A DNA stretch of 64,000 nucleotides from Candidatus Acidulodesulfobacterium sp. (GTDB lineage Bacteria > SZUA-79 > Acidulodesulfobacterales > Acidulodesulfobacteraceae): the NCBI GenBank assembly GCA_049965795.1, contig JBMFVW010000001.1, positions 53,917 through 117,916 of the forward strand, in the 5' to 3' direction. The position numbers and the translations under genes were made by a program. Of this stretch, positions 1,920 through 63,818 are shown piece after piece. How positions within the stretch are numbered: the first letter of the stretch is position 1; every line of letters begins with the position of its first letter. A model generated the notes under the pieces. That model was not told the DNA's origin. It searched no databases and saw nothing but the letters and a program-made list of their open reading frames with translations.

Positions 1920-2527
1920 TCTTTTAAATATTTATATAAAATTTTCCCTTTACTAGAATAAATTATTTTTGAAGGTTCTATTTTCAAAATAAAAACGCCG
2001 CCTATATTTTCTCCGGTATGAACATAATGTTTTTTGCCGTTTATTTTTATTAAAGCCGTATTGCCGCCGGTAAATATTAAAGCCACTGCCCGCTTATTTT
2101 TGTCTGAAAATCCTTTAAATTTTAAATTCTTGACAATATTGCTTAAATTTCCGCCGTTATAAAAACTCCGATTCTGGTTCATTAAATCAGGGGCAGATTT
2201 TGCTGCATAGCCTGCGGTTGCGTTTTTTTGCGATTTTGAGTGCGGAATAAAAAGCCTGCTGTATTTTTCGTACTTTTTATGCGGAATATTAAAAATATCC
2301 CTAAGCGGTTTTCTCGATAATTGCGTAGATTCGGCTTTTGGTCTGCCGTCTTTAACTTTAACGCTTAAATCAAGTTTATTAATTTCTTTATTTCTATAAG
2401 GCGTCTTATGCAAAATATTTAGTTTTTTATTATTTCCGGCTTTAAACCTGTTTAATAACGATAATATTACTATAAATAAAAAAAACGCAAAAAGAATAAC
2501 AAAAAAAATTTTAATTTTAGATTTCAT
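1916..2527 (-). CDS. Bitopic membrane protein, possible PilP/GspC-like assembly component (last gene of the secretion/pilus cluster)
   Basis: N-terminal TM helix (IFFVILFAFFLFIVILSLL). C-terminal beta-rich segment (KINGKKHYVHTGENIGGVFILKIEPSKIIY) resembles the GspC/PilP HR domain. Call is also based on its position in the cluster. Confidence 0.4.
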   Translation of the reverse strand: MKSKIKIFFVILFAFFLFIVILSLLNRFKAGNNKKLNILHKTPYRNKEINKLDLSVKVKDGRPKAESTQLSRKPLRDIFNIPHKKYEKYSRLFIPHSKSQKNATAGYAAKSAPDLMNQNRSFYNGGNLSNIVKNLKFKGFSDKNKRAVALIFTGGNTALIKINGKKHYVHTGENIGGVFILKIEPSKIIYSSKGKILYKYLKD

Positions 2528-2570
2528 TATACCCTCTTTATCTTTTGATATTAAATATTAAAATTTATTT

Positions 2571-3074
2571 TCATTTAAAGCCTACAAGTTCAACATTTAT
2601 AATTGCATCTATTTTTCTTCCGGATTTAATATTAATTTTTTTTATTTCGAACGGAAACGATTTAAGCGTCTTTATTAATGAAAACAATACATCTACGTCT
2701 GAAAAATTACTTAATGCCACCTTAAAATTCATTGTTTTAAAATAAGTATCATCGGCATTTTTCATATTTTCAGTTTTTTGAATACTAACTCCTATATTAA
2801 ATCCTTTTTCTTTTAAATATCGCGCATAAGATAAAAAAGATACCATATAGCTATAAAAACCTTGTTTTCCTGCCGGAAATTTAATAGTTTTAATCTTATT
2901 GTCTTTTTTAAGATGAATTTTTAACTGTCTGAAAGTATTTTTTTCGTAAATATAAGATTGCTTTAATTTATAAAAAACTTTCATAGAAGGTATTAACCGG
3001 TACAGTAATATGTAGGACGAGGTTAAAGATAATAAAAGTAATACTATCGGCCTTTTGTTTTTAATTTTTTTCAT
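2571..3074 (-). CDS. Bitopic membrane protein, possible PilO/GspM-like assembly component
   Basis: 167 aa with a single N-terminal TM helix and a periplasmic alpha/beta part. Sits between the GspL-like and GspC-like genes. Call rests on context only. Confidence 0.35.
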   Translation of the reverse strand: MKKIKNKRPIVLLLLSLTSSYILLYRLIPSMKVFYKLKQSYIYEKNTFRQLKIHLKKDNKIKTIKFPAGKQGFYSYMVSFLSYARYLKEKGFNIGVSIQKTENMKNADDTYFKTMNFKVALSNFSDVDVLFSLIKTLKSFPFEIKKINIKSGRKIDAIINVELVGFK

Positions 3075-3095
3075 TTAGTATTTATTTTTTTTGAT

Positions 3096-4298
3096 TTAAT
3101 TTAAGAATCCTAAAAATTTCATTGAAGGCTTGCCAGACTTGCCGAATAAATATTTAACGCTTAATGTTTTTTTATAATCCAATTTTTTAGCTATAGTATT
3201 ATAATCATAAGAGAATCTTCTATAACCTCCGTTATCAAAAACGGTTGCATAAAAAATATATCCTGTTCCCGATTTCATCATTTTAATTTTTTTTATTTTT
3301 ACGGTTTTAGGCAGAAGTGCAAAAAAACTTTTCAAATAATTTACAATATTAACTTTGGAAAAATGCCCGTTAAATATAATTTTGCTTTTATCTCTATCTA
3401 TTTTTAAAGATAGAACGGCAATTTTTTTGTTCATTTCCTCTATTTTTTGCCGTTCGAAAACTGTTTTTTTTCCGTAAGAAATAATCATTGCTTCCATAAA
3501 AAAAATAACGAATATTAAAACTGCGATATAAATATTTTTTGTCCTATTTTTTTTATCTTCTATTTTTTTAAATTTTATTTCCGGATTTTCAAAATGAGAA
3601 AAAGTTTTATTTATTCTTTCAAAATATTCAAAAAAATCTTTGGCGGTAAAATTTAATATTTCTGCATTTCCGAAAAAATTTTTAAAGTCTCCGCAATCGC
3701 AGTCGGCAATTATCTGTTCTATTTTAATAAATTTATTTTCGGAATCTATTTTAGTTTTTAAAATATTAAGATTGTCGGTTATCATATCCGCCTTAAAACT
3801 TAAAACCGGCATTATGCTAAAACCGTTTGAAATTATGATAATCTTATATACGTCGTCCGTTTTTTCTATAAATAGAAAATTCTTTTTCAGATTAAAGCCG
3901 TTAAATTTTTCTTTTAAAAACTCTATAACCAAATAATCGTATGGAATAACTATATCTATCCTTTGAAATAACGAATAATATTTTTTGATATTTGAAGGCA
4001 GGGCATGATAAACGCCGTATTCTCCGTTTATGCCGTATGCCAAAAAATACGATCCGTTCTTATAAGATTTTCCAATGTAACGGCTTAAATAAAATTTTTT
4101 GCGGTTTTTTACATTTTTTTCAGGTATAACCGAAAAATTGATATTTTTAGATATTACGGCAACGGCATAATTTACTTCTGTTTCCGATGAATCATCCGAA
4201 TAATAATCGTCGGTAAGGCTATGGGAAAAAACCGATTTATCGCCGTCAAAATATTGATATATATCGTATTCTTCTATATAAATGAAATTTTTATACAT
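3096..4298 (-). CDS. GspL-like / fused PilM-PilN-like assembly protein (cytoplasmic domain + TM + periplasmic domain)
   Basis: 400 aa. A central TM helix (IYIAVLIFVIFFMEAMIISYG) separates a ~255 aa cytoplasmic part from a ~120 aa periplasmic part, which is GspL architecture. Lies inside the cluster. Confidence 0.45.
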   Translation of the reverse strand: MYKNFIYIEEYDIYQYFDGDKSVFSHSLTDDYYSDDSSETEVNYAVAVISKNINFSVIPEKNVKNRKKFYLSRYIGKSYKNGSYFLAYGINGEYGVYHALPSNIKKYYSLFQRIDIVIPYDYLVIEFLKEKFNGFNLKKNFLFIEKTDDVYKIIIISNGFSIMPVLSFKADMITDNLNILKTKIDSENKFIKIEQIIADCDCGDFKNFFGNAEILNFTAKDFFEYFERINKTFSHFENPEIKFKKIEDKKNRTKNIYIAVLIFVIFFMEAMIISYGKKTVFERQKIEEMNKKIAVLSLKIDRDKSKIIFNGHFSKVNIVNYLKSFFALLPKTVKIKKIKMMKSGTGYIFYATVFDNGGYRRFSYDYNTIAKKLDYKKTLSVKYLFGKSGKPSMKFLGFLN

Positions 4299-9759: not shown

Positions 9760-11475
9760 TTATCTTATAATTTTGGGCGTCAGCATTATAAGCAGGTCTT
9801 CTTTTTGATTCGTATCGTTTGCCGATTTAAAAAGATCGCCTATGAGCGGAATTTTAGACAATAAAGGAATCCCATACGTATTTTTAACTTTATCCGTCGT
9901 CAGTATTCCTCCGACAAGTATCGTCGAACCCGATTTTACGTTTACGGTATCGGAAAAACTTTTCGATTCTATCACCGGATTACTGAAACTTTCCCCTCCT
10001 ATAGCAAAAGACTGATAGCCGGTGATAGAGTTATCTATAAGGCTTAAAGTAACGGAAACTGAATTATTCTTAAAATTGATATGCGGAGTAAAGGATATAG
10101 AAAGTCCGGTCTGAATCTGCGATATAACCGGATAAGTTTCCGTCTGCGACAGGCTTAACGCCATAGTCTGAATACTTGAAACATAAGGAGTTATAGTGCC
10201 TGACGATATAAGCCTCGTCTGACCGTCCATTAAAACAAGCCTCGGTTGAGATATAACGTCAACCGCCCCCTGAGTCCTAAGTGCATTTAAAATTGCGCTG
10301 TTGCTTCCCGAACCGTTAAAACCTATATACGGCACGTTGGAAATATTGTTTGAAGACGCAAGCTGAGCCGAAACCGACACGGAATCTGCCCCGAAAACAT
10401 TAGATTTAAAAGCCTGATTAAATAATAAATCCCAATTTATTCCCGCTTGAAATCCTTTATTTAAACTTACGTCTATTACCTCTACTTTCAAAAAAACCTG
10501 TTTTGAAAGAAACTTATTTATTCTTTTTATATAAGCCGCAACCTCGTTTACATTTGAAACCCTATCTTTAACCCATATCAATCCGTCTTTCGAATTAATA
10601 AAATATTTTCCGTTTTTAGTCAACATTTCTTTTATATTTTCGGAAATAATAGAATACAGGCTGCCTGATTCCGACAGCGTCAGCGATAAAGAGCCGGAAG
10701 GATTCCCTGAGTAACCGCCGTTATTTGAGGAATTCCCGTTTGAGCCGGAATTAATTAAACCCGACGGCAAAGAAGCCGACGATCCAGGGTTTCCGCCCGT
10801 AATACCGGTACTGCCTCCTTCCGGCATTTCCTGAGTATTTCCGTTATTAATGCCGGAATTAACGCCTCCTCCTTCTCCGATACCGCTCATGCCGACAGTC
10901 GAAGAAAAAGAGGATAACAGATCCGATACCGGAATATGAAAAGTTTTTTCTTCTACCGCATAAATATAAAGCATTTTATTTTTATAACTGTAGGCAAAAC
11001 CGTTAGAAACTAAAAGCCCGTTTAAAACTTTATACAACGGAATATTTTTATAATATACTTCGTTCCTGAGTTTATCGGGAAACCTACTGTAAATTACAAA
11101 AGGAATACCTGTTTCATGAGATAACGTCATCAAAGCCGACTTTACGCTTCCGTTTCCGGAAAGCGAAATTTTTTGCTTCAAAAAATAAGGCATATTAATA
11201 TTAATCAAACTTTTTTTGCAGATTCTTCCGTTTACTTCTTTGCAGCCGGTTTTTTTATTAACTTTTATAGACATACTATCTCTTTTTTTTCCGCCGAAAT
11301 TAATATGAACCACCCCTGCTTTTTTAATTTTAATACCGTATTTCTTAAGCAATCCGTCAAAACTGTTTAGATTTTTACCGTAAGCAGAGCTGATTTTAGC
11401 CGTTAAAAGCATACCGATACTTGCAACTGAAGTTATCAATACAAATATCGACAATTTTTTCTTTTTGTTTTTCAT
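9760..11475 (-). CDS. Secretin (GspD/PilQ family outer-membrane channel)
   Basis: Signal peptide and N-domains. C-terminal secretin core with 'IPLLSKIPLIGDLFK' and 'EDLLIMLTPKII', hallmark secretin motifs. First gene of the D-E-F-G ordered cluster. Confidence 0.85.
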   Translation of the reverse strand: MKNKKKKLSIFVLITSVASIGMLLTAKISSAYGKNLNSFDGLLKKYGIKIKKAGVVHINFGGKKRDSMSIKVNKKTGCKEVNGRICKKSLININMPYFLKQKISLSGNGSVKSALMTLSHETGIPFVIYSRFPDKLRNEVYYKNIPLYKVLNGLLVSNGFAYSYKNKMLYIYAVEEKTFHIPVSDLLSSFSSTVGMSGIGEGGGVNSGINNGNTQEMPEGGSTGITGGNPGSSASLPSGLINSGSNGNSSNNGGYSGNPSGSLSLTLSESGSLYSIISENIKEMLTKNGKYFINSKDGLIWVKDRVSNVNEVAAYIKRINKFLSKQVFLKVEVIDVSLNKGFQAGINWDLLFNQAFKSNVFGADSVSVSAQLASSNNISNVPYIGFNGSGSNSAILNALRTQGAVDVISQPRLVLMDGQTRLISSGTITPYVSSIQTMALSLSQTETYPVISQIQTGLSISFTPHINFKNNSVSVTLSLIDNSITGYQSFAIGGESFSNPVIESKSFSDTVNVKSGSTILVGGILTTDKVKNTYGIPLLSKIPLIGDLFKSANDTNQKEDLLIMLTPKIIR

Positions 11476-11532
11476 AATTTTTTGTTTTTAATCAAGTTAA
11501 TTTTTTTAAATATAATTCAATTATATTTTTTT

Positions 11533-11600
11533 AATGTTTCCACATTATGACAATTTTGTTACATTTATATTAAATTTTTGTTAAATTTATGTTACAAATC
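11533..11600 (-). promoter_or_regulatory. Putative extended -10 promoter plus 22-bp-phased direct repeats upstream of the secretin operon (copy 1 of a shared motif)
   Basis: The minus strand reads ...TTGTCATAAT..GGAAACATT about 58 nt upstream of the secretin ATG. It is ~75-80% identical by eye over ~68 bp to 16199..16267 upstream of comM. Confidence 0.5.
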
Positions 11601-11776
11601 TGGCAAGAATACAGCAAAAATCGTTTTTTAAAAGGTTTTTTATAGCGAAACGAGGAATAAAAAAATGGCAAATAATAAAATAAAATTTATATTGCAACAC
11701 AAACGCACTTCGATAATTGACAGAAATCGGTATAAATGGTATTATTTATATATTAAAGATACTACTATCCGATTAT

Positions 11777-11853
11777 GCGTTCATAGCTCAGATGGATAGA
11801 GCAACAGCCTTCTAAGCTGTGGGTCGCAGGTTCGAATCCTGCTGGACGCACCA
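11777..11853 (+). tRNA. tRNA-Arg (anticodon TCT), CCA encoded
   Basis: Cloverleaf read by eye: acceptor GCGTTCA/TGGACGC, D-arm GCTCAGATGGATAGAGC, anticodon arm ACAGC-CTTCTAA-GCTGT, T-arm GCAGGTTCGAATCCTGC, then ACCA. Confidence 0.93.
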
Positions 11854-12259
11854 CTTAAACACGCATGATACTATTTCGCAAATTATTGGGCTAATACAAA
11901 AATAGTCAGGTCTATAAATCTCGTCTTGCCTGAATATAAATGAAAATCGCATGTCCGGGAATATTAGGCTATATAGTCGAAAAAGAAGAACAAGGTTACG
12001 GTTTTTAAAAACCGTAAATAAACATTTGAAATTTATATAAGCATTTGCGATATTTAATTTCCGTTTTATAAAATACCACAGCAGTCCATATTCCATATAA
12101 TTAATTTTAAATAAAACGTAATTATATTTTAAAATTTTCTTGACTTGTATTAAAAAAAAAGATATCGTTAATTAACTATTCAACGTATGTTTTTATAAAA
12201 AATATAAAAGCGTTTGATTAAATCAAAATAATTTTAACATCTAATTTATTTTAAAATCT

Positions 12260-13411
12260 ATGAAAAACAATAATTTTCGTCCTTTTAAACAATTAAACAA
12301 ACCGAGCGATCTTATAAGGCAGTTTACTCCTAACTGGTTTACTATGAATATGGGTACAGGAATATTGTCGCTAATGCTGGCGGCTTTTCCGTATCATATT
12401 GCGGGGTTATTAATTGCAGCTAAAACTTTATGGATAATAAATATTTTTCTTTTTATAATATTCAGCATTTTATTTATAAGCAGATTTGCGTTTTATTTTA
12501 ATTCCGCAAAAAAATTATTTAGCCATCCTGTGCAGTCTATGTTCCTTGGGGCTATTCCGATGGGACTTGTTACTATTATAAACGGTTTTTTAAATTTCGC
12601 AGCTCCCAAAATGGTAGGGCTTGCTTTTTACTTGTGGTGGTTAGACGTCATTATAAGTTTTGTAGTCGGGCTTATGGTTCCTTTCTATATGTTTACGCAC
12701 CATGCCCATAGCATAGAAGATATGACGGCGGTATGGCTTCTGCCTATCGTTCCGGCAGAAGTTGCAGCTGCATCGGCAGGTTTTCTTGCACAGCATCTTT
12801 CGCCTGCTTCGGCAAGAAACGTTATTGTTACGGGCTATGCCCTTTGGGCTTTTTCGGTGCCGCTGGCTTTCGGTATTCTTGTAATACTTTTTTTGCGTCT
12901 TGCCTGGCATAAACTGCCTCATAGGGATATGGCCGTTTCTACGTGGTTGACGCTTGGACCTATAGGCACCGGAAGTATGGGACTTCTTCTTTTGGGAAAC
13001 GATGCTCCGAGGGCATTTGTGGGGACTAAACTTTTAATTTATGCAAAAACCGCTTCGGCATTCGGACCTATAGGCGGATTGATTATATGGGGATTCGGAT
13101 TCTGGTGGTTGATGATGGCTATATTATTAACGATAAGATATGTAAAAGAAGGTCTGCCTTTTAATATGGGCTGGTGGGGATTCACCTTCCCTCTGGGTGT
13201 TTATACGGCGGCAACAATTATATTATATAGACTTACGGACATAGAATTTTTCAGGGTAGCCGGAGCTATTTTCGTTATAATGCTTGCATCCTTCTGGACT
13301 ATCGTAACTTCAAGGACGCTTCACGGCATGTGGCACGGATATCTGTTTAAGGCGCCTTGTTTGTCAAACGAAACCGGTTTGCCGGACGAATCTAAAGAAT
13401 GCCTGCAGTAA
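12260..13411 (+). CDS. TDT-family transporter (TehA/Mae1/SLAC1-like C4-dicarboxylate / tellurite-resistance family)
   Basis: 383 aa, ~10 TM helices. N-terminal 'PNWFTMNMGTGILS' and 'LPIVPAEVAA' segments are typical of the family. Confidence 0.8.
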   Translation: MKNNNFRPFKQLNKPSDLIRQFTPNWFTMNMGTGILSLMLAAFPYHIAGLLIAAKTLWIINIFLFIIFSILFISRFAFYFNSAKKLFSHPVQSMFLGAIPMGLVTIINGFLNFAAPKMVGLAFYLWWLDVIISFVVGLMVPFYMFTHHAHSIEDMTAVWLLPIVPAEVAAASAGFLAQHLSPASARNVIVTGYALWAFSVPLAFGILVILFLRLAWHKLPHRDMAVSTWLTLGPIGTGSMGLLLLGNDAPRAFVGTKLLIYAKTASAFGPIGGLIIWGFGFWWLMMAILLTIRYVKEGLPFNMGWWGFTFPLGVYTAATIILYRLTDIEFFRVAGAIFVIMLASFWTIVTSRTLHGMWHGYLFKAPCLSNETGLPDESKECLQ

Positions 13412-13453
13412 AAAAACATAAATAATATAAAAAAATTAAAGGGGATTTAAAAA

Positions 13454-14466
13454 ATGAAAAGAATCAAAATTTTATTTTTTTTCTACTTAATGCTTTTATC
13501 GATGATGTTTATAAAATTGGCATCTCCAAAAAAAGCTTATGCGGGACCCGACGGTTCCGGAAACAATTTTTTCTACAAAGGCTCTTTTGCTTTCGGCACA
13601 CCTCCTACAAATAAATTTATTACTTATCAGATGTTGACGTACGAAGCTTGGGGTTCCGCCTTTAATAATAACGGACAATCGGTAAATCTGCCGGCTCCAG
13701 TAACAAGGTATGTATATCTGCCGGAATTTATATGGACGAATAAAATATTAATACAAATCTTACAAACCTTTTTCAAGTAATAGTGCCTTTCGGACAGGCG
13801 ACGCAACATAAGAGCAGCCCGCAAGTTTCTATAAGCGGTCAAACATATAATTATTCAAATTCAAGTTCGGGATTAGGGGATATATTGGTTTATGAAGGAG
13901 TATCTACCAAAACTTACTCTGACGGAAATTTGTCCGCAAATTTATTTCCGCAGGTTAGTTTTACGGTTCCGGCAGGCAACTGGAACAATGATTCTACTAT
14001 AAATCTGGGCGGCGACGAATGGCAGATAATGCCTACTTTGACAGGCGAGGTTTCTTACAAATTGCCGTCTAATATGAATTTAGCATTTGACTACGCAGTA
14101 GGCTACAGCTACAACGAAGGACATTCTGCTATAAATATGGCTGAAGTCAATACCGGAGGAGCCAGCATAACCAACCCTTCAAACAACTTTTTTGCCGATG
14201 GATTCTTAAACTATTACATAACGCCTTATTTAGACATATATAACGAAACCACTTACGTTAAACAGGGTGCAAACGACGGATATATTGGAAAAGGCACACC
14301 CGTTTACACTCAAATCAACAACGGCTATAAAGACGTAGCAACCGGTTTCGGCATAGACTACCATATTAAAAACGTTATGATAGACGCGCGCGTATTAAGA
14401 GACTTGCACGGCGATAACGGTCCTGACGGATTTTACAGCCAGGTCGGTTTAATAATGGTATTCTAA
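13454..14466 (+). pseudogene. Outer-membrane beta-barrel protein gene (MetA-pathway/'transporter' OMP-like) split by an apparent frameshift near 13740..13780
   Basis: ORF 13454..13780 supplies a signal peptide (..KLASPKKAYA|G) and the first strands. The downstream frame is open from 13744 and continues as a beta-barrel with alternating aromatic pattern ending in '...QVGLIMVF'. The frames overlap in the A/T-rich 'gaataaaatattaata'. Confidence 0.5.
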
Positions 14467-54886: not shown

Positions 54887-56134
54887 ATGTTCGTAAAAGG
54901 TTTAAAATGCAGGGAATGCGGCAAAGAATATCCTGACAGTCCGCTTTATGTTTGCGATTATTGTTTCGGTCCGCTTGAAGTGGATTACGATTACGATAAA
55001 ATCAAAAAAGAAATAACGAAGGAAAAAATAAAATCGCGCGATGCAAATATGTGGCGTTATCAAGAACTTCTCCCTATCAAAGGAGAAATAAAAATAGGCA
55101 AAAACGTCGGATATACGCCTCTTGTAAAAGCGGATAATCTTGCAAAAGCTCTCGGCGTTAAAGAAATATACGTTAAAAACGATGCCGTAAACTTTCCTAC
55201 CCTATCTTTTAAAGACAGAGTCGTTTCGGTAGCCATTGCAAAGGCGAGAGAATTCGGTTTTAAAACCGTCGCGTGCGCATCGACCGGCAACCTTGCAAAT
55301 TCCGTTGCCGCATTGGCAGCTTCCTCAAGCTACGAAAGTTTTGTATTTATACCGTCGAATCTTGAAACGGGGAAAGTATTGGGAACTCTTATATACGACA
55401 CCAATCTCGTTAAAATTAACGGCAGTTACGATAAAGTCAACAGGCTCTGCACCGAAATCGCCGGCAAACACAGCTGGGCATTCGTAAATATCAACTTAAG
55501 ACCTTATTATGCCGAAGGCTCAAAATCTCTTACTTTCGAAATGCTCGAACAGTTAGGATTCAAAGCTCCGGATAACGTCGTAGTTCCAATGGCAGGCGGC
55601 TCTTTAATAACAAAAGTCGGCAAAGCCATTGACGAATTCGACTACTGCGGACTGCTTAACGAAAAACCGCATACGCGAATTTTCGGGGCGCAGGCAACCG
55701 GTTGCAACCCTATAACCTCAACCGTCAAAGAAAAAAGAGAATTTATAAAACCGGTAAGAACTCCGGATACTATTGCAAAATCGCTTGCAATCGGCAATCC
55801 TGCCGACGGCTACTATGCATCAGACCTGATGAATAAAACCGGCGGGTACGGCGAAGATGCAACAGACGAAGAAATAGTAGAAGGCATGAAGCTTCTTGCC
55901 GCAACCGAAGGCATATTTACCGAAACTGCGGGGGGCGTTACAGTTGCAGTAGCTAAAAAACTCATAGAAAAAGGCTATATAAACAAAAACGAAACGACGG
56001 TTCTTGCTATTACCGGAAACGGGCTTAAAACTCTAGAAGCCCTAAACGGAAAATTAAAAGAAGCTCCGGTTATCGAAGCCAACTTAGAAGAATTTGAAGG
56101 AGTTCTCTCTAAAATTAAAAGAAAAGGTAAATAA
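54887..56134 (+). CDS. Threonine-synthase-family PLP enzyme with N-terminal zinc ribbon; predicted sulfur-carrier-dependent homocysteine synthase rather than ThrC
   Basis: 'CRECGKEY..CDYCFGPLE' ribbon. PLP lysine 'PTLSFKDR' and 'ASTGNLANS'. First gene behind a SAM riboswitch and followed by sulfur-carrier genes. Confidence 0.8.
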   Translation: MFVKGLKCRECGKEYPDSPLYVCDYCFGPLEVDYDYDKIKKEITKEKIKSRDANMWRYQELLPIKGEIKIGKNVGYTPLVKADNLAKALGVKEIYVKNDAVNFPTLSFKDRVVSVAIAKAREFGFKTVACASTGNLANSVAALAASSSYESFVFIPSNLETGKVLGTLIYDTNLVKINGSYDKVNRLCTEIAGKHSWAFVNINLRPYYAEGSKSLTFEMLEQLGFKAPDNVVVPMAGGSLITKVGKAIDEFDYCGLLNEKPHTRIFGAQATGCNPITSTVKEKREFIKPVRTPDTIAKSLAIGNPADGYYASDLMNKTGGYGEDATDEEIVEGMKLLAATEGIFTETAGGVTVAVAKKLIEKGYINKNETTVLAITGNGLKTLEALNGKLKEAPVIEANLEEFEGVLSKIKRKGK

Positions 56135-56182
56135 TTGATTATATTAAAATAATTTTAATTATAAAATAAAAGGAGGATAAAA

Positions 56183-56698
56183 ATGCCTATAAAAGTAAGA
56201 ATACCCACGCCGCTTAGAACTTTAACCGGTGGAAAAGCGGAAGTGGAATCTAACGGTTCAAATATTATCGAAATAATTAACGATTTAGAGAAAAATTTTT
56301 CGGGAATAAAAGAAAGAATATGCGAACAGAACGATCAGGTAAGAAGATTCGTGAACGTTTATCTTAACGACGAAGACATAAGATTTATAGACAATATAAA
56401 TTCAAAGGTCAAAGACGGCGATACTATTTCCATAATTCCGGCAATAGCAGGCGGCGCGCCCGAAAAAAAAAAGTTTTATCTTAACTATCCGCAGGAAGTA
56501 ATTAAAGAACCGCTAATTTATCTTGTCGGAAAAAACTACAACGTTATCACTAATATCAGAAGCGCAAGCATATCCAACGATATAGGGATAATAGCAATAG
56601 AACTCGAAGGCGAAACCAAAGATATAGAAAAAGCGGTTAAATTTTTGGAATCCAAAGGCGTAACGGTAGAACCTATCGTTCTCGACGTCGTAGAATGA
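56183..56698 (+). CDS. CysO/MoaD/ThiS-type sulfur-carrier domain with internal Gly-Gly, fused to a C-terminal NIL-like domain
   Basis: Residues 1-92, 'VRIPTPLRTLTGGKAEV...DLEKNFSGIKERI...RFVNVYLNDEDIRF...DGDTISIIPAIAGG', closely parallel mycobacterial CysO as I recall it. The ~78 aa after the GG resemble the NIL domain of MetN-type proteins. Confidence 0.75.
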   Translation: MPIKVRIPTPLRTLTGGKAEVESNGSNIIEIINDLEKNFSGIKERICEQNDQVRRFVNVYLNDEDIRFIDNINSKVKDGDTISIIPAIAGGAPEKKKFYLNYPQEVIKEPLIYLVGKNYNVITNIRSASISNDIGIIAIELEGETKDIEKAVKFLESKGVTVEPIVLDVVE

Positions 56699-56707
56699 TA
56701 AATTTGC

Positions 56708-56738
56708 GACAGGGACAGAATTAAATTCTGTCCCTGTC
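56708..56738. repeat. REP-like palindromic unit (perfect 15-bp arms), possible intra-operon attenuator/stabiliser
   Basis: GACAGGGACAGAATT-A-AATTCTGTCCCTGTC, 10 nt after the stop of the carrier gene. Followed only by TTT and then an A-run. Confidence 0.75.
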
Positions 56739-56762
56739 TTTAAAAAAGCGGAGGAAGGAAAA

Positions 56763-57566
56763 TTGAATTTTACCGAAGAACAGATTAAAAGATATGCAAG
56801 GCATATTATACTTCCGGAAGTCGGAGGAGAAGGACAGGAAAAACTTCTTTCGTCAAAAGTTCTTCTTATCGGCGCCGGAGGATTAGGCGCTCCCTGCGGA
56901 TATTACCTCGGGGCTGCCGGAATAGGCACTCTCGGCATAGTCGATTACGATACGGTTGATTTGTCTAACCTGCAAAGACAGATTTGGCACGGAAACGCCG
57001 ACGTAGGAAGATATAAGGTGGACTCTGCCAAAGACTCGATAGAACGCATTAACCCAGACGTAAAAGTTATTCCTTATAAAGAAGGCATAAATATAAACAA
57101 CATTAAAGATTTAATAAAAGAATACGACGTAATAATAGACGCGACCGATAATTTCCCGACGAGATATTTAATTAACGACGCCTGCCATTTTATGAAAAAA
57201 CCTCTTGTTTACGGTTCTATTTTCAGGTTTGACGGACAGGCAACAGTATTTTTGCCGGATGAAGGTCCATGCTACAGATGTCTTTTTCCAACCCCTCCGC
57301 CTGCAGGTCTCGTCCCCAGCTGTCAAGAAGCCGGAGTGCTCGGCGTTCTTCCCGGGGTTATAGGAGCTATTCAGGCAAACGAAGCTATAAAAATAATTCT
57401 GGGCATCGGACAGACTTTAAACGGAAGGCTTCTTATTTATGACGCTCTCGATATGAAATTTACCGAAATGAAACTCAGGCAGGATAAAACTTGCCCGCTT
57501 TGCGGCGAAAATCCGACGGTATTAGAATTGATTGAATACGGCGACCTTTGTGAATTTAAGAATTAA
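56763..57566 (+). CDS. MoeB/ThiF/MoeZ-type E1-like adenylyltransferase (no rhodanese domain)
   Basis: 'RYARHIILPEVGGEGQEKL', nucleotide loop 'LLIGAGGLGAP', 'NLQRQ', and zinc CxxC pairs 'CYRC' and 'CPLC'. TTG start. Confidence 0.9.
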   Translation: MNFTEEQIKRYARHIILPEVGGEGQEKLLSSKVLLIGAGGLGAPCGYYLGAAGIGTLGIVDYDTVDLSNLQRQIWHGNADVGRYKVDSAKDSIERINPDVKVIPYKEGININNIKDLIKEYDVIIDATDNFPTRYLINDACHFMKKPLVYGSIFRFDGQATVFLPDEGPCYRCLFPTPPPAGLVPSCQEAGVLGVLPGVIGAIQANEAIKIILGIGQTLNGRLLIYDALDMKFTEMKLRQDKTCPLCGENPTVLELIEYGDLCEFKN

Positions 57567-57625
57567 ACTTAACGACGGAGCAGCGGAAAAGGTGCCGGAT
57601 TTATTTATTAAACTTAACAACGGAG
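57562..57625 (+). repeat. 19-bp direct repeat (1 mismatch) flanking a 26-bp copy of the GGTGCCGGATTT repeat module
   Basis: ATTAAACTTAACGACGGAG (57562..57580) and ATTAAACTTAACAACGGAG (57607..57625). The insert CAGCGGAAAAGGTGCCGGATTTATTT matches 44947..44970. Confidence 0.7.
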
Positions 57626-57632
57626 TAAAAAG

Positions 57633-57881
57633 ATGTCCGAATATAAAGAAAACGAGGAACTAAATATAAAAGGCGAGATATGCCCGTTTACTTTCGTTAA
57701 ATCTAAACTTGTTTTAGAAAAAATGAAAAAGGGCGAAATTTTAAGAGTAATAGTAGATTACGAACCTGCAATAAGAAACGTACCCCGCTCTATGGAAGAA
57801 CAGGGCCATAAAGTATTATCCATAAATAAAATAAACGAAACCGATTACGAAATTATCGTTGAAAAAGATGGAAAAAAATAA
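57633..57881 (+). CDS. TusA/SirA-family sulfurtransferase
   Basis: 82 aa with the conserved 'GEICPFTF' Cys-Pro motif near the N-terminus. Confidence 0.85.
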   Translation: MSEYKENEELNIKGEICPFTFVKSKLVLEKMKKGEILRVIVDYEPAIRNVPRSMEEQGHKVLSINKINETDYEIIVEKDGKK

Positions 57882-58815
57882 ATCCTGTTTTAATATTTTT
57901 AATATTTCAGATATTTTTAATTCGGCATCCAATATAGGCGGCACAGGAATAGTCCTGTTAAATAAAATCGTTAAAACTTCCTCGCACGGTTCAAAATTAT
58001 ATGCAAAACTCGAAGGTCTTAATCCGGGAGGCTCCGTAAAAGACAGGCCTGCGCTCTATATGATAAAAAACGCCGTAGAAAAAGGTTTAATAAAAGAAAA
58101 TACCTCTATAATAGATTCGTCTTCCGGAAATACTGGAATTTCCTATGCAATGATAGGAGCGCTTCTCGGCATAAAAGTTAAAATTTACGCTCCCTCAAAT
58201 ATGAGCGAAGAAAGAAAAAAAATAATGCGTCTTTACGGAGCGGAATTAATACTTACCCCCGCCGAAGAAAGCCATGACGGAGCTATAAAACGGGCGGAAG
58301 AAGAATATAAAAAAGGCGGCAAAGATGTTTACTATATGCCGGACCAGTACAATAATTCTTACAACCCCATATCCCATTATGAAACAACGGCAGTCGAAAT
58401 TATTAAACAAACAGGCGGGAATATCGATTATTTTGCTACAGGCATAGGGACCGGCGGAACAATATTGGGAGTAGGAAAAAGACTTAAAGAATATAACGAT
58501 AAAATAAAAATTATAGCCGTTGTTCCCGACAGCGAAATGCACGGCATCGAAGGATGGAAATACAACTATTCTTTAAATTTCGACGGATTCAACGCCGATA
58601 AAATTATAGACGATTTTGTTAAAGTGGATACAGAAGGCAGCTATGATGCTTTAAAAAGACTCGTAAAAGAAGAAGGTATCCTGTGCGGATTTTCTTCAGG
58701 CGCCAACGTCTACGGAATACTTAAGCTTACTGCTAAATATAAAGGTAATTTTGCTACGGTACTTCCGGATACCGGTTCAAGATATCTTTCAACAAGAGTT
58801 TTTTCGGAGTTTTGA
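57859..58815 (+). CDS. cysM: Cysteine synthase family PLP enzyme (CysM/CysK-like; likely thiocarboxylate-dependent)
   Basis: 'NPGGSVKDRPA' PLP-lysine motif, 'SSGNTGIS' and 'GIGTGGT'. The true start may be Met4 (57868). Confidence 0.88.
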   Translation: MKKMEKNKSCFNIFNISDIFNSASNIGGTGIVLLNKIVKTSSHGSKLYAKLEGLNPGGSVKDRPALYMIKNAVEKGLIKENTSIIDSSSGNTGISYAMIGALLGIKVKIYAPSNMSEERKKIMRLYGAELILTPAEESHDGAIKRAEEEYKKGGKDVYYMPDQYNNSYNPISHYETTAVEIIKQTGGNIDYFATGIGTGGTILGVGKRLKEYNDKIKIIAVVPDSEMHGIEGWKYNYSLNFDGFNADKIIDDFVKVDTEGSYDALKRLVKEEGILCGFSSGANVYGILKLTAKYKGNFATVLPDTGSRYLSTRVFSEF

Positions 58816-58876
58816 TTAACATTTTAAGTAATAACTGATTGGCAGATACGTTAAAATAAGGATATAATATATTATT

Positions 58877-59308
58877 ATGGCTATTATAATTCCAAAAAGC
58901 GAACTAGAGATTATAAAAAAGCATGCGGCTGATATTTTTCCATATGAAGCATGCGGCGGACTTCTGGGAAAAATAGAAGGGGAAAACAAAATTATAGTAA
59001 AAACCTATCCTGCGGAAAATCGCTACGGAAAAATAACTTGGGACAGTTTTGAGATAGAACCTAAGGATATATTGGAAATGGATAAATTTTGCATGAAAGA
59101 AAATCTCGATATTCTGGGATTTTACCATACGCACCCAAACCATCCGGCAGTCCCTTCCAACTTTGATATCAACGCTTCCTGGCCTTTTTACTCATACGTA
59201 ATTATTTCCGTAAAAGGAAATACCCCAGAAAAAGTAGCAGACATTAAAAGCTACCTTATGCCCGACAGAACCGCCGTTCCGACCGAAGAAGAAGTTATAA
59301 TAAGCTGA
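58877..59308 (+). CDS. JAMM/MPN+ metalloprotease (Mec+/HcyD-like)
   Basis: 'EACGGLLG' (Glu) and 'GFYHTHPNHPAVPSNFD' (HxHx7Sx2D JAMM motif). Confidence 0.88.
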   Translation: MAIIIPKSELEIIKKHAADIFPYEACGGLLGKIEGENKIIVKTYPAENRYGKITWDSFEIEPKDILEMDKFCMKENLDILGFYHTHPNHPAVPSNFDINASWPFYSYVIISVKGNTPEKVADIKSYLMPDRTAVPTEEEVIIS

Positions 59309-60551
59309 AATTTTTAGGAGAAAACGACAAAACATTTTGTATAACTTCAGGATTGCCTTTCCTTCCGGAAAGCCACCTTTTTTTCCAATATTCTATAAGA
59401 TCATCTACACTATAATTAAAATATTCCAATTCATCCGTGCGTCCGTTTAAAAAATCCAAGGAATTATATGCCAAAGGCACATAATATATATCTCTTTTAA
59501 TAGAATGATTTAAAAGAAAATTAGCGTCTAATCCATAATTTTCTAAAAATCTAAGGGCTTTTTTAATAAACCTGAATTTATAATTTGAACCGTCCCCGAA
59601 TTTATATCCTACCTCCTTGCCTTCTTTAGTTTTCAATAAATTTTTTAAAAGTTCGTTAGTGCGATTAGAAAATTGAAAAGTACCGAAACCTTTAGTCTGG
59701 CCTATTCTTTTATAGAGCAGTTCGCCGTTATATTTTATCCTATTGTACTGCGAACTCTTACCGTATAAACTAGTAGTAAAAATTGCCGCTAGATTTGATG
59801 ATTTTCTCTTGTTAATTATAGTAGTCCGATTCAAATATTTATTTTGAAAAATTTCCATAACTTCTTTTGACGCCATTGTATAAGCAATTAATTTCCCGCC
59901 AAGTAGATAAGAATATGGTGGTACTGCGCCGCACACATAAAGATCCATACAGTAAACTAAATTTTTATTTTTAGTTTCCCTATCCCACCCGATAAAATCG
60001 TCTCTTTCCGGTATTCTTATAATTGAACTGCCCAATGCAGCAATTCCTATAACAGGTTTATAATCTATAGCCGCATCTCTTATAATAAATTTAATCCGTC
60101 TTCCGACATATTCGCTGTAAGGACTCGACCAAGTATATCTTAACATTCTAAACAAATCTCTTTGTTGCTGAGTTTCGCATATTTCGATAATAGGGGAGAT
60201 AACGGAGTTAAAACAATCATATCCATTTGCAATATTTTTCGTAAATATCTCTCTATTTTTATTGATAAAATAGGCATTTTTATTTATAATTTCTTCTTTT
60301 CTGGGAAGAATTAAATTTCTTATGAAATCTTTATCATTTAAATCCGAAGCATTATTTTCAAATTGAAATTTACCTTTTTCATAAGAAAATTTAAAATTTA
60401 ATGCGGAAATATCACTGCAGACAGAAGCGACAATATCATTTTCTAACTCGGATGACTCTAATCCTAATCGGTCTATTGGCTGATTTTCAATTTCGATATT
60501 TTGCGTCAATACCGGTAGAGGAAAGTAATTAAAATTATCGTCAAAAGGCAT
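59295..60551 (-). CDS. DUF4338-like (DruA-type domain) protein, third gene of the NurA/HerA operon
   Basis: Core (~aa 135-295): 'VGRRIKFIIRD...PVIGIAALGSSIIRIPERDDFIGW...LGGKLIAYTM...TTSLYGKSSQYNRIKY...IGQTKGFG'. This follows the block order I recall for Pfam DUF4338. Not verified by HMM. Confidence 0.55.
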   Translation of the reverse strand: MPFDDNFNYFPLPVLTQNIEIENQPIDRLGLESSELENDIVASVCSDISALNFKFSYEKGKFQFENNASDLNDKDFIRNLILPRKEEIINKNAYFINKNREIFTKNIANGYDCFNSVISPIIEICETQQQRDLFRMLRYTWSSPYSEYVGRRIKFIIRDAAIDYKPVIGIAALGSSIIRIPERDDFIGWDRETKNKNLVYCMDLYVCGAVPPYSYLLGGKLIAYTMASKEVMEIFQNKYLNRTTIINKRKSSNLAAIFTTSLYGKSSQYNRIKYNGELLYKRIGQTKGFGTFQFSNRTNELLKNLLKTKEGKEVGYKFGDGSNYKFRFIKKALRFLENYGLDANFLLNHSIKRDIYYVPLAYNSLDFLNGRTDELEYFNYSVDDLIEYWKKRWLSGRKGNPEVIQNVLSFSPKNFSLL

Positions 60552-60553
60552 GT

Positions 60554-62683
60554 TTATTTTTGATTCATTTTTTCATTCCATTTAAAGGTAGGTATGCAGA
60601 CAAAAGGCTTAGATTCTTCTTGCCCATTCATAAAATGCGGACCCTGAAGTATTTCAATTTCGTCTTCAATACAATCAAATATATAGCTAAATATTGGTTT
60701 ATACAGGTCGTCTTCTTTTCTGATTTCGTTTTTAAACTCTTCTTTTTCCTTAACATCACGCACTATATAATATAATCTGCCTTTTAAAATGCCGGTTTTA
60801 TTTTTATCGCTAAAATCTTGAGTCTTAAGTTTATTGTTTTTAAAATCGCTCTTTATAACTCTGAATACTTCCTCGGCCATTAATTTTATACGCTCGTTAG
60901 ATCTTTTAACAACTAACATGGCCGTAGAATTTTCATATTTTTTATTACTTTCGGGATTGCCTTCTTTTACTATATATTTTTTGTAAAGGCTTTCAAAACT
61001 TCGTATTCTGACCGGCAGGACAAAAGGCTGAAGAGGCGCGCTCCACATATAGCAATTTCCTATTATAGGCTCGTTAATAATATTTAAAATAATATCCTTT
61101 GAATAAAAGGAATTATATCTTTGCAAAATGGAGGCATCGCCTTCCGATAAAACGTGAAAAACGAACCAATTATCCGATTGACTTAATATTTCCGGAGCTA
61201 TGGAGCCAGGCTGCTGGGTAACCATAATAGCGCCTAAATCATATTTTCTACCCTCTTTAACCCATTCTACAAAAGGGCTTGTTTCAGAAAGCGATTTGCC
61301 TAAAACACTCTGCGCTTCCTCCATTATTGCAATAACGGGAATAGAAGAACCGTCTCCGGTGAAATTTTCCTGATTAAAATTAAATATATTTCTCATTATA
61401 AGTCCGGCAACATTATTACCTGCGGTTGAACTCAGCAGACTTATATCCACTATTACGACCCTGCCTTCTTTCAGTAAAATTTCTACTTCCTCTACTAATC
61501 TGCTGTTCGGATCGTGCAAATGACTTACTAAATTATACATGTTGCTTTTTGCGGCACTTATCTCGGCTGATTGACCTGAAGCAGCATCTTTGTTATAGCC
61601 CATAATCTTGGCTATCTCTTTATCGTCCGCCTGCATTCCGTCTTTTTCTATAATATCCACCAATTTTTTCCAATTATCTATTTTTAGACTTTTTAATTTA
61701 ATAATATTTTGCTGCTCCTGCCTGTCTGGCGAAATTGCTATGCCTATAACGTCCCTTGGCAAAAGAGACTTAATATTAAGTTTAACGTCTCCCGCCTTCC
61801 AACTGCCATAATATGTACTTATAGATTTCCTGTTCGTAAAAACAGCAATAATGTCTTTTAAGTGAGGCACATCGCACAAGGCAGGCCTGTTTTTATTATC
61901 CGGCCAAAAATATTCTCCGTCTGGATCAAATATTAAGGTCCCGACTTTTTTATTTTTATCCGTTACAGCATATTTTCCGTTATCTTTATAAAGTTCCGAA
62001 ACCAGATATTTAATTAGATTTGATTTCCCGTAACCCGCTCTTGCAAATACTACCGACCTTTTAGAAACAATATTATTTATATTAAATTTAACGTTAAGAT
62101 TAGGTTCTATATACTGAAAATTAGAAAGATAATCATGTACACCCGTGTTAGCGTTATTGTCGGTGTTTTTTCCGGAATATATAAATTCGCCGAGTACGTA
62201 ATTGCCAAGATCTGTTTCCCCCTGGCTTAGCGAACATAACTCCCTTAATACTTCATCGCTTGGAAGCGAAACTTTAGCACCAAGATGCGGTATCCTGCGC
62301 AGCGAAGGTATAAAAATAATCTTATCTTTCGACTGCTCGACCTGCACTATTTTGACGGCGCCGAGCAGTTTAATCTGCACCTTATATTTTAACTTATCTT
62401 TTTTTAAATCGTCCGGCACAGTCTGCCCTCTTTTTTGAAGTGCCATAATATAGTCTTCGCCTTCTACCGATGAAAGAAGACCTGCGGGGGCAAAATTTGT
62501 TATTCTGGCAAGAGAGGCCTCAAGAGGGTTTGCAAGCTCTATTAATAAAAATTGACCTAATTGCGGTCTTTCAAGCATACGCGCATCATATGGAGTAACG
62601 ACTTCGGCTGAAAATTCGTAACCTGATTCCACCGAGCCCTTAAAGATACCCATTAAATCAGATTTTGCAAATAGTTCAAGCAT
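60554..62683 (-). CDS. HerA-like FtsK/HerA-superfamily ATPase
   Basis: N-terminal HAS-barrel-like segment. Walker A 'ARAGYGKSN', Walker B 'VIAIMEEAQSV', 'IMVTQQPGSI' and 'NWFVFHVLSEGD', in HerA order. C-terminal extension of ~130 aa that I do not recognise. Confidence 0.8.
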   Translation of the reverse strand: MLELFAKSDLMGIFKGSVESGYEFSAEVVTPYDARMLERPQLGQFLLIELANPLEASLARITNFAPAGLLSSVEGEDYIMALQKRGQTVPDDLKKDKLKYKVQIKLLGAVKIVQVEQSKDKIIFIPSLRRIPHLGAKVSLPSDEVLRELCSLSQGETDLGNYVLGEFIYSGKNTDNNANTGVHDYLSNFQYIEPNLNVKFNINNIVSKRSVVFARAGYGKSNLIKYLVSELYKDNGKYAVTDKNKKVGTLIFDPDGEYFWPDNKNRPALCDVPHLKDIIAVFTNRKSISTYYGSWKAGDVKLNIKSLLPRDVIGIAISPDRQEQQNIIKLKSLKIDNWKKLVDIIEKDGMQADDKEIAKIMGYNKDAASGQSAEISAAKSNMYNLVSHLHDPNSRLVEEVEILLKEGRVVIVDISLLSSTAGNNVAGLIMRNIFNFNQENFTGDGSSIPVIAIMEEAQSVLGKSLSETSPFVEWVKEGRKYDLGAIMVTQQPGSIAPEILSQSDNWFVFHVLSEGDASILQRYNSFYSKDIILNIINEPIIGNCYMWSAPLQPFVLPVRIRSFESLYKKYIVKEGNPESNKKYENSTAMLVVKRSNERIKLMAEEVFRVIKSDFKNNKLKTQDFSDKNKTGILKGRLYYIVRDVKEKEEFKNEIRKEDDLYKPIFSYIFDCIEDEIEILQGPHFMNGQEESKPFVCIPTFKWNEKMNQK

Positions 62684-63818
62684 TCTTATAACGCGCCTCC
62701 GTTAAATTGCGGTGCAGATATTTCATTCTGTATATACTTTCTCTTTCGGATTCTGTAAGTGTCTTGCTTATTCCTTCTATCAGCATATCTTCTAACAATT
62801 CTACTTCTATTCCGTTAATTTTTGCGTGCCCGTGAGCATTTTGAATACTAAGCGGGAAATCAGGTATTGGAAAACCCAGCCTTGCGTCATGAAGCAACTG
62901 TCCCAGAATCATTTCGGCATTTTCGATGTCCCAAGCGGCAATATCTACCGGCCATACTGGATCGTAAGCACCGTCTCCGAATTTAACGAGAAATAGCTTG
63001 CCCATAGATGCATATTTTTGATTTTCTTCTTCTGTAGAAACATCGTCAAAAGTATTAAACCAAGTCCTGTCGTAATTATAACAGTACTGCTCAATTTCAT
63101 CAGGAACTTTCACATAGCATGAATAAGGCAGCTTAAAAACATTTTCTATGGCAAGGGCAAGCGATAGCCTGCTTATAACTGCGCTTTCTTTTGCTACTCC
63201 AACAACATTAACGTTTATATTTCTTTTTTGCTTATGCTCTTCGCACTTTTCTTTTATTTTTTTATCCAATTTAGGAAATATAGTATTTTTAATAGATTTT
63301 GTCCTGAGTAAACCTTCTCTTATTATTATTGTATTATTTCCCCAATCGTTATATAAAAAATCGTATAAAATAGCCCATTCTACTATATCCCGATAAACCT
63401 TAACCGCCGCCGCCGTCTTGTCCTGCTGCCCAATTCCCGCCAATAAATATGAAATGTCGCTTAATCTGTTTAAACCTAGATCGGCGCATAAACGTTTAAG
63501 CGGTTTAATTCTTTCGACTCTTTCGTTCAAATTAGTCGCATTAGAATTGCCGAAAATCGGATCTATAGCACACTGGACGCCCCTTGAATCCACAACTCTT
63601 ACAAGCTCAAGCACGCAAGGATTGAATTTTATATTATTATTACCGCCGTCTGCAGAAACGAACGACACTGCAGTAGCAGTATAAGGCCTTAAAATTTTTA
63701 TATTGTCTTTAATTTTTTTCGCAAAATTCCGCAGCTCTTTTACTACCGGCTCTTCGGTAGCTTTATAAGACATTTCTATTTGATATCTTATTAAATCTAA
63801 ATTGTCGTCGGAGAGCAT
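62676..63818 (-). CDS. NurA-like nuclease (RNase H-like fold), first gene of the operon
   Basis: Blocks in NurA order: 'VSADGGNN' (cf. DGS), 'TIIIREGLL' (cf. hhhhDGSL), 'VVGVAKESAVIS' (cf. GhSKxS) and 'FPLSIQNAHGHAKI' (cf. YPxxLxxA[DH]xxA). Its stop overlaps the HerA start by 8 nt. Confidence 0.6.
   Translation of the reverse strand: MLSDDNLDLIRYQIEMSYKATEEPVVKELRNFAKKIKDNIKILRPYTATAVSFVSADGGNNNIKFNPCVLELVRVVDSRGVQCAIDPIFGNSNATNLNERVERIKPLKRLCADLGLNRLSDISYLLAGIGQQDKTAAAVKVYRDIVEWAILYDFLYNDWGNNTIIIREGLLRTKSIKNTIFPKLDKKIKEKCEEHKQKRNINVNVVGVAKESAVISRLSLALAIENVFKLPYSCYVKVPDEIEQYCYNYDRTWFNTFDDVSTEEENQKYASMGKLFLVKFGDGAYDPVWPVDIAAWDIENAEMILGQLLHDARLGFPIPDFPLSIQNAHGHAKINGIEVELLEDMLIEGISKTLTESERESIYRMKYLHRNLTEARYKNA

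Follow-up and report, generated by a model that had tools for sequence, protein, structure and literature searches.

What does a DruA protein do where no other Druantia protein is encoded beside it? This question is raised by a 64,000-nucleotide stretch of DNA from Candidatus Acidulodesulfobacterium sp. (contig JBMFVW010000001.1; hereafter the window), in which a first-pass annotation had recognized a DUF4338 core at 59667-60149, had noted the lack of DruB to DruE, and had proposed that the domain is a portable module. Druantia type I, of which DruA is the founding component, comprises five genes, and its size makes it difficult to dissect; no mechanistic account of DruA was found in the literature searched. 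The analysis revealed a row of three genes on the minus strand, which begins with the genes for a predicted NurA-like nuclease and a HerA-family ATPase and closes with the DruA gene. The features are:

59295-60551, minus strand: gene 3, a full-length DruA/DUF4338-family protein of 418 amino acids (Pfam DruA match; predicted fold resembling the acyl-CoA N-acyltransferase (GNAT) superfamily)
59667-60149, minus strand: the core noticed in the first-pass annotation, residues 135-295 of gene 3, with six motif blocks and a predicted GNAT-like beta-sheet core (translation and AlphaFold2 (AF2) model)
60554-62683, minus strand: gene 2, a HerA/FtsK-superfamily ATPase (DUF87) of 709 amino acids (Pfam PF01935)
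62676-63818, minus strand: gene 1, a predicted NurA-like (TdpB-like) RNase-H-fold nuclease of 380 amino acids (AF2/Foldseek match to TdpB)
60549-62683, minus strand: the coupled gene junctions nurA/herA/druA (window coordinates)

The identity of gene 3 was verified with several approaches. A Pfam scan matched it to PF14236 (DruA, formerly DUF4338), the accession that had been proposed, with an E-value of 7.1e-65 and a score of 219.5 bits at a cut-off of 27. The PADLOC DruA model gave an E-value of 7.9e-79, and its score was 263 bits for gene 3 versus 708 bits for canonical DruA. All six motif blocks that had been named are present between residues 135 and 295, i.e., VGRRIKFIIRD (149-159), VIGIAALGSS (167-176), RDDFIGW (183-189), LLGGKLIA (216-223), TTSLYGKSSQYNR (259-271), and GQTKGFG (284-290), and an alignment of 29 homologues, which has a mean column identity of 66% across phyla, shows no variation at their key residues. 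All 29 aligned homologues also matched PF14236, and no family competing with DruA was found among their Pfam matches, even at E<=10; thus, neither a missing profile match nor an unrelated family, the two results that had been named as speaking against the assignment, was obtained. As a canonical reference the DruA protein of Ralstonia solanacearum pUW163a was used, which stems from a druA-B-C-D-E locus. It shares 32% identity with gene 3 over 367 amino acids (BLASTP, E=7e-54), including the motifs GRR, RDxFIGW, PPYxxLLGGKL and TTSxxGxSSxYNR.

The extent of the domain had to be revised. It had been confined to the central 160 amino acids or so, and the N-terminal 130 amino acids had been regarded as unrecognizable and as a possible sensor or specificity domain. 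However, the Pfam match covers residues 73-370 (model positions 3-297 of 297), the BLASTP alignment spans residues 37-397, and variability and low model confidence are limited to residues 1-28; therefore, the N-terminal part is ordinary DruA sequence. Taken together, gene 3 encodes a bona fide DruA-family protein. This domain call is not new, because an identical protein from a Candidatus Acidulodesulfobacterium sp. metagenome-assembled genome is already present at NCBI under the name "Druantia anti-phage system protein DruA".

The two genes upstream encode a motor and a putative nuclease. Gene 2 matched PF01935 (DUF87) with an E-value of 8.2e-27, and its best relative of solved structure is TdpA (8wet_A, E=1.2e-20, residues 405-568 only), followed by the archaeal HerA 4d2i. 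The HerA models of PADLOC matched it partially, with E-values around 1e-20. In 21 homologues of the window type, which is designated class 1 below, the Walker A motif ARAGYGKSN (residues 214-222) does not vary, and the Walker B-like motif xxxxEEAQS at residue 451 is conserved. The sequence thus strongly supports that gene 2 encodes an ATPase of the HerA family in which the Walker motifs are intact.

Gene 1 had no match in Pfam, PADLOC or NCBIfam. Its structure was therefore approached with AF2, whose models in this study were built on shallow alignments of 29-30 sequences with >=48% identity. The gene 1 model (pLDDT 76) matched TdpB of the TdpAB complex (8wfd_G) in Foldseek with an E-value of 1.1e-10 and a probability of 1.0, at a structural template modelling (TM) score of 0.56-0.59; the next matches were NurA of P. 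furiosus (3tal, E=6e-3) and then PIWI domains of Argonautes. In a profile search TdpB was met weakly (E=0.028) over a region that spans the motifs YRDIVEW and GVAKxS, and a class 2 protein (see below) that is recognized by the Pfam NurA model was matched by hhalign with an E-value of 8e-5. Based on the fold match to TdpB, the weaker matches to NurA and PIWI domains, and the weak profile match, gene 1 is regarded as encoding a predicted, divergent NurA-family nuclease. Its invariant acidic and histidine residues include D57, E168 and H329. E168 lies in the motif REGxLRTKS and is an invariant glutamate in 30 of 30 class 1 nucleases; it takes the place of the aspartate in the DG-type motif of TdpB and class 2 NurA proteins (xxDGxL/RDSPL), and could represent a functional variant of the metal-binding site.

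The three genes are very tightly packed. The nurA and herA genes overlap by 8 nt (62676-62683), and this overlap is retained in 19 of 21 class 1 loci; the herA stop codon and the druA start codon are separated by 2 nt (60552-60553), while the median distance in class 1 homologues is -4 nt. This strongly supports that the minus-strand genes from 63818 to 59295 form one self-contained, translationally coupled cassette in the order nurA-herA-druA. Searches with DruB, DruC, DruD and DruE of pUW163a did not yield any tblastn match at E<=1e-4 in the 64-kb window, in agreement with the first-pass annotation.

Exact-sequence look-ups in contigs gave no match, and the genomic context was therefore studied in relatives. 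The distribution of the cassette was determined in two directions. For the DruA side, one genome per species was scanned with sequence patterns, which yielded 80 loci with DruA identities of 43-86%. Because they were retrieved by two clade-specific peptide patterns, this census describes the present DruA clade and not all DUF4338 proteins. The loci span more than 12 phyla, including lineages of the candidate phyla radiation (CPR). Four of them are cut by contig ends, and in 72 of the 76 assessable loci a herA gene lies directly upstream of druA. Class 1 comprises 20 loci with a TdpB-like nuclease of about 385 amino acids and a HerA protein of about 690 amino acids. The 52 loci of class 2 encode a Pfam-positive NurA (PF09376) of about 410-430 amino acids together with a DUF87 ATPase of about 550 amino acids, which has the Walker motifs AQSGFGKTN and xxxVEEAQN. 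In the three loci of class 3, DruA is accompanied by a protein that combines a Ser/Thr kinase with an ORC/Cdc6-like AAA domain, and by a CARF6-like protein. One further locus is atypical. Homologues of DruB to DruE were found neither in the 80 genome loci nor in 53 metagenome loci.

The class 3 loci (L018, 3744-9200; L034, 3760-9176; L052, 3744-9131) have the gene order of a protein of about 180 amino acids without a family match, the kinase-AAA protein of about 850 amino acids, the CARF6-like protein of about 360 amino acids, and then DruA. The kinase-AAA protein matched the PADLOC model CARF6--CARF_STK_AAA with an E-value of 4e-54.

The reverse census used the NurA-like protein as its entry point to metagenome contigs. 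A druA gene was adjacent in all 29 assessable loci, and 28 of them contained the NurA–HerA–DruA triad in the usual order. The remaining locus, L138 (contig Ga0185299_10004271, 3675-8107), has the permuted order druA-nurA-herA and likewise no DruB to DruE. Its NurA and HerA proteins belong to class 1 (48% and 54% identity to those of the window), whereas its DruA shares 52% identity with the canonical Druantia type I protein of pUW163a and only 33% with that of the window. Thus, the three cassette genes almost always co-occur. From this co-occurrence, and from the finding that DruA is replaced by another DruA in L138, it can be argued that DruA is strictly required.

The cassette is also present in cultured bacteria. 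In Thermoflavifilum aggregans (Bacteroidota, class 1) the order of the three genes is kept in unrelated flanks, and Mucilaginibacter roseus LMG 28454 carries a class 2 cassette. Consequently, the function of DruA should be testable in a minimal system, in which its partner is a motor–nuclease machine that ranks among the best understood. In the literature searched, in which subscription journals were thinly covered, no description of the triad was found, and an earlier description is possible.

Several genes were considered as a fourth component and rejected. A gene of 342 amino acids without a Pfam match lies between nurA and herA in five class 2 loci (L006, 5134-6162; L019; L021; L077; and one more), where the gaps between the two genes amount to about 1,035-1,053 nt; its restriction to these five loci excludes it as a conserved component, and it may be an optional one. 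A 431-amino-acid gene similar to PD-T4-10_B occurs only in the M. roseus locus, and a membrane CARF-like gene upstream of the cassette in a close relative (L001, see below) is locus-specific. A recurrent integrase or another conserved gene was not found among the cassette flanks.

A comparison of the three proteins revealed that DruA has evolved independently of its partners. Between classes 1 and 2 the median identity is 55.5% for DruA, in contrast to 28% for HerA and 19% for NurA, and the DruA medians within and between the two classes are about equal (55.5-58.7%). The highest cross-class identity of DruA is 83% (class 1 locus L023 versus class 2 locus L011), while the partners of these two proteins share only 27% (HerA) and 20% (NurA) identity. 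The class 3 DruA proteins are 77-80% identical to those of class 2. In a neighbour-joining tree, which was built without bootstrap support, the partner classes are intermingled, and a long branch divides the cassette DruA clade from canonical DruA. DruA is thus a module that has been exchanged among several effector sets, and this exchange is now documented at short evolutionary distance. Two diverged NurA–HerA pairs, the kinase-AAA/CARF6-like set, the locus L138 and larger fusions bear out the proposed portability. The idea is not wholly new, considering the NCBI label and the fusions of DUF4338 to DndF (PMC10853773), which add to the support from the exchange of partner sets. Domain shuffling among defence systems is expected, and the cassette is a clear case of one module exchanged among effector sets.

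The family as a whole is much larger. It comprises 1,735 clusters at 50% identity, with proteins of about 400, about 600-730, and 880-1,290 amino acids. Yet another architecture and context was observed on a plasmid of Hymenobacter canadensis (L087, 9800-12958), where a DruA-annotated protein of 1,052 amino acids, with the DUF4338 region near the N-terminal third, lies close to a DUF3883 protein of 1,578 amino acids and a DUF2075 protein.

The cassette was compared with known systems that contain similar components. TdpABC of thermophiles is a restriction-modification system based on phosphorothioate, and TdpC is its DNA-modifying enzyme (PMC12914056). It is also a three-gene cassette, which combines a motor with a nuclease and a further enzyme, and TdpA and TdpB are the best solved sequence match of gene 2 and the best fold match of gene 1, respectively. 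The relationship is remote, however, with 15-16% identity for the nuclease and a HerA similarity that is confined to the C-terminal ATPase half, and the third gene encodes the GNAT-like DruA/DUF4338 protein and not TdpC. A gene of the DndC or PAPS-reductase type was absent from the Pfam labels across the 21-kb locus L001, a search in which the TdpC sequence itself was not used as a query. With Druantia type I the cassette shares a third protein of the same Pfam family that can be aligned nearly over its full length, and L138 even pairs a canonical-type DruA with NurA–HerA. In contrast to Druantia, the signature YprA-family helicase DruE as well as DruB, DruC and DruD are absent, and the cassette DruA forms a distinct, long-branched clade. 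Because the defining partners DruE and, within the Pfam labels of L001 and the conserved cassette genes, TdpC were looked for and not found, the cassette belongs to neither Druantia nor TdpABC; its effector resembles TdpAB and HerA–NurA, and its third gene resembles Druantia.

The archaeal and bacterial HerA–NurA complexes for DNA end resection consist of a hexameric FtsK/HerA-type translocase beside an RNase-H-fold NurA nuclease, a pairing that is predicted for the cassette as well, and the class 2 partners match the Pfam NurA model directly. The class 1 nuclease escapes this model. Moreover, the cassette differs from these machines in that it has no linkage to Mre11–Rad50, has an obligatory GNAT-like third gene, is horizontally mobile, and often lies beside defence genes. 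SIR2–HerA and DUF4297–HerA are compact defence operons that also couple a HerA ATPase to an enzymatic partner, but they have two genes instead of three, the partners in the cassette are a NurA nuclease and a GNAT-like protein, and gene 2 matches their HerA models weakly. The DndFGH variants with a DUF4338-DndF fusion combine the domain with a HerA/FtsK-like ATPase (DndH) and a nuclease; there it is part of a very large complex and is read as an optional co-effector (PMC10853773), whereas the cassette DruA is a stand-alone gene for about 400 amino acids that is always present.

The surroundings of the cassette were surveyed qualitatively with 128 flanking open reading frames (ORFs) from 27 loci. 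The matches included mad2, CapP, RmrA, methyltransferases, HNH proteins, PbeA and GajA, and KwaB, PD-T4-10_B and a type I restriction subunit (restriction endonuclease) were found in individual loci; all of them were mixed with housekeeping genes. The distribution is patchy, and the cassette looks horizontally mobile. Most likely, it is an anti-phage or anti-plasmid system, and it can be stated with good confidence that it is a defence system with NurA–HerA as its effector. It would then be a widespread candidate system that has remained undetected by PADLOC v2, which has no full-length model for the NurA or HerA proteins of class 1 or class 2.

The possible role of DruA was approached via its predicted fold. 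In the AF2 model of gene 3 (pLDDT 78.5) the core contains the strands 153-159, 167-175, 201-209, 256-260 and 281-285, which alternate with helices. The top Foldseek matches in the PDB were almost all members of the GNAT superfamily, which accounted for most of the best 20. They included malonyl-CoA decarboxylase, TmcA, NAT10, LasI, TofI, a lasso-peptide acetyltransferase, phosphinothricin acetyltransferase, FeeM, a GNAT toxin (7byy) and, at a lower rank, GCN5, with probabilities of up to 0.97 and target-normalized TM scores of about 0.5. The invariant sequence Y-L-L-G-G-K-L follows the fourth strand (201-209), at the expected site of the pyrophosphate-binding loop of GNATs. In the literature, DUF4338, which some DndF proteins carry as a fusion, has been assigned to the GNAT domains by the Aravind lab (PMC10853773). 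When the DruA alignment was used as a sequence-profile query against the PDB, only spurious matches were obtained. Hence the models support a GNAT-like fold with matches that are weak but consistent, and acyltransfer chemistry is a prediction.

Taking these results together, the following mechanism is proposed. By analogy to archaeal HerA–NurA and TdpAB, a HerA hexamer would feed DNA into a NurA dimer, which would degrade it, so that the pair would form the DNA-degrading effector. DruA would be an obligatory control module, presumably an acyltransferase with a substrate that is independent of the partners, as the swapping of DruA among different partner proteins argues. Its most likely role would be self-marking, in which an acyl group that it places on self DNA or on a component bound there restrains the nuclease. 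The control function is suggested because the class 1 NurA–HerA pair was never seen without a druA gene, because DruA lineages, one of them of the canonical Druantia type, have been swapped without co-variation of the partners, and because the conservation of DruA is high, which is not typical of phage-sensing domains. That DruA serves as an enzyme for control or marking, and not as a second effector, is a tentative assignment, with a chance that falls just short of even, and it is unlikely that the mark is placed on DNA specifically.

The self-marking role is based on analogies with TdpC, with the methyltransferase DruM, which reportedly replaces DruA in Druantia type II, with Mom, and with the DruA-like genes of lytic pelagiphages, cyanophages and giant viruses, which would parallel the orphan methyltransferases of phages. 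Mom of phage Mu is a GNAT-superfamily enzyme that modifies adenine in double-stranded DNA (PMC13219725, PMC7261163), and as such it indicates that the fold can act on DNA in a phage–host conflict. It differs from the proposed enzyme in that it is a counter-defence protein with Gly-tRNA as donor, and no match of Mom to DruA in sequence or structure was seen, although no search aimed at one was made.

Several points weigh against this interpretation. For most GNATs the acyl acceptor is a protein or a small molecule, and no DNA-binding domain was demonstrated in DruA. The E-values behind the GNAT assignment are weak: the best in Foldseek was 4.6e-3 and none was <=1e-3, and the loop LLGGKL deviates from the GNAT consensus Q/R-x-x-G-x-G/A. 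The 29 homologues did not match any GNAT Pfam family, even at E<=10, and the call thus rests on fold comparison and literature. HerA–NurA could tell phage from host DNA via free DNA ends, in which case a mark would be unneeded. N6-acyl adenine is chemically unstable (PMC13219725). As to the defence function, the cassette is absent from the systems of PADLOC v2, and the flank survey lacked a background control. In addition, pattern-based retrieval biases the DruA-side census.

The alternative that survives best is that DruA serves as a second effector, one that is suicidal or arrests growth, i.e., a GNAT similar to TacT/AtaT that acetylates host proteins or aminoacyl-tRNAs when NurA–HerA is triggered or blocked. 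The GNAT toxin structure 7byy and protein acetyltransferases among the Foldseek matches point in this direction, dual-effector HerA systems are known (SIR2–HerA, DUF4297–HerA), and the GNAT domain fused to DndF has been read as a protein-targeting co-effector (PMC10853773). Such partners are usually optional, yet class 1 NurA–HerA was accompanied by a druA gene in 29 of 29 loci. In addition, an antitoxin-like partner is not conserved beside DruA, the very strong conservation of the protein does not fit, and homologues are carried by lytic phages and giant viruses. A co-effector function of DruA is therefore regarded as unlikely.

It was also considered whether the cassette is a non-immune housekeeping or mobile-element module for DNA processing such as end resection or repair, in which DruA would acetylate a repair factor. 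The archaeal HerA–NurA pair is indeed a resection machine (PMC12977600), many flanking genes have housekeeping functions, and PADLOC does not contain the cassette. However, the distribution is patchy and transfer-like, with identities of 43-56% over more than 12 phyla, CPR bacteria among them, the insertion sites vary, indels at the same site exist between close relatives, and a linkage to Mre11/Rad50 is missing. The frequent defence genes in the neighbourhood and the closest solved relatives, the restriction proteins TdpA and TdpB, also argue for immunity, and to our knowledge the only other setting known for DruA is a defence system. A non-immune function is thus quite improbable.

A third possibility is that DruA is a signal synthase, similar to the synthases of acyl-homoserine lactones, and that an acylated small molecule made upon infection switches on the adjacent effector set, be it NurA–HerA, the kinase-AAA/CARF6-like set or DruB to DruE. 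This would explain the swaps between unrelated partners, since a diffusible product does not require contact with them; LasI, TofI and FeeM were among the best Foldseek matches (probability 0.94), and in class 3 the same DruA clade is paired with a CARF6-like protein of a ligand-sensor type. But this structural similarity is generic to the GNAT fold, a ligand-binding sensor domain was not recognized in the class 1 and class 2 NurA or HerA proteins, and DruA has no evident infection-sensing domain, which makes signal synthesis very unlikely. Finally, the possibility that a Druantia type I locus has decayed or been split, as the NCBI pipeline name might suggest, with DruB to DruE lost or encoded elsewhere, was rejected and is effectively refuted by their absence from the window and the 80 genome and 53 metagenome loci, by the long branch and 32% identity that separate the cassette DruA from canonical DruA, and by its consistent coupling to NurA–HerA.

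The proposal of DruA as a control or marking enzyme can be extended to the whole family, though this is a rather improbable generalization: DruA proteins would be nucleic-acid acyltransferases that write a hitherto unrecognized acyl mark on cellular DNA, which would be read by at least four unrelated motor/nuclease modules to spare self. If this were true, the readers would be the NurA–HerA pairs of classes 1 and 2, the kinase-AAA/CARF6-like set, DruB to DruE of Druantia and some DndFGH variants, and self would be marked by a third kind of chemistry, that of DruA, in addition to methylation and phosphorothioation. In this case, phages and giant viruses would use their homologues for counter-defence, to mimic the mark.

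DruA-like proteins were also found in viruses. An alignment-based scan of IMG/VR, limited by its search patterns, did not reveal any triad-type DruA, and the cassette clade does not appear to be phage-borne. Among lytic T4-like pelagiphages, Pelagibacter phage Mosig (L088, 3554-4852) encodes a DUF4338/DruA-like protein with 27% identity (E=4e-13), the gene of which lies among genes for a 2OG-Fe(II) oxygenase, a peptide deformylase and MazG; phage HTVC008M also has such a protein. Similar genes are carried by six Synechococcus phages (Phold paper). Among the giant viruses, DruA-like proteins of Faunusvirus, Yasminevirus and Dasosvirus in BFVD gave Foldseek E-values down to 5e-16.

The remainder of the window is mostly of a housekeeping character and encodes CarB, RpoD, DnaG, LepA, type II secretion proteins and a ComM-like ATPase; the largest ORF outside of the cassette is that for carbamoyl-phosphate synthase (CarB). 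On the plus strand the cassette is adjoined by an operon that resembles sulfur-carrier-protein systems (54887-59308) and encodes two PALP enzymes, a ThiS/MoaD–NIL protein, a ThiF/MoeB-type activating enzyme, TusA and a JAB/Mov34 peptidase, and the JAB gene and druA overlap tail-to-tail by 14 nt. A connection of this sulfur-carrier/cysteine operon to a Tdp-like phosphorothioation was considered and rejected, and the operon was judged to be unrelated to the cassette, because the cassette flanks differ in every other genome. In the 86%-identical relative L001, an insertion of three genes (11356-13753) lies exactly between the JAB gene and druA; their products are a LexA/S24-like regulator, an N6/N4 DNA methyltransferase and a DUF6996/DUF6997 protein, and upstream genes for Cas6, a CARF protein (Cas_NE0113) and the membrane CARF-like protein are found. 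The site, around position 59300 of the window, looks like a variable defence hotspot. At the other end of the window, positions 2001-4000 are the stretch with the lowest GC content (26% compared with about 36%), and an ORF for 400 amino acids without a Pfam match lies in this region on the minus strand (3096-4298).

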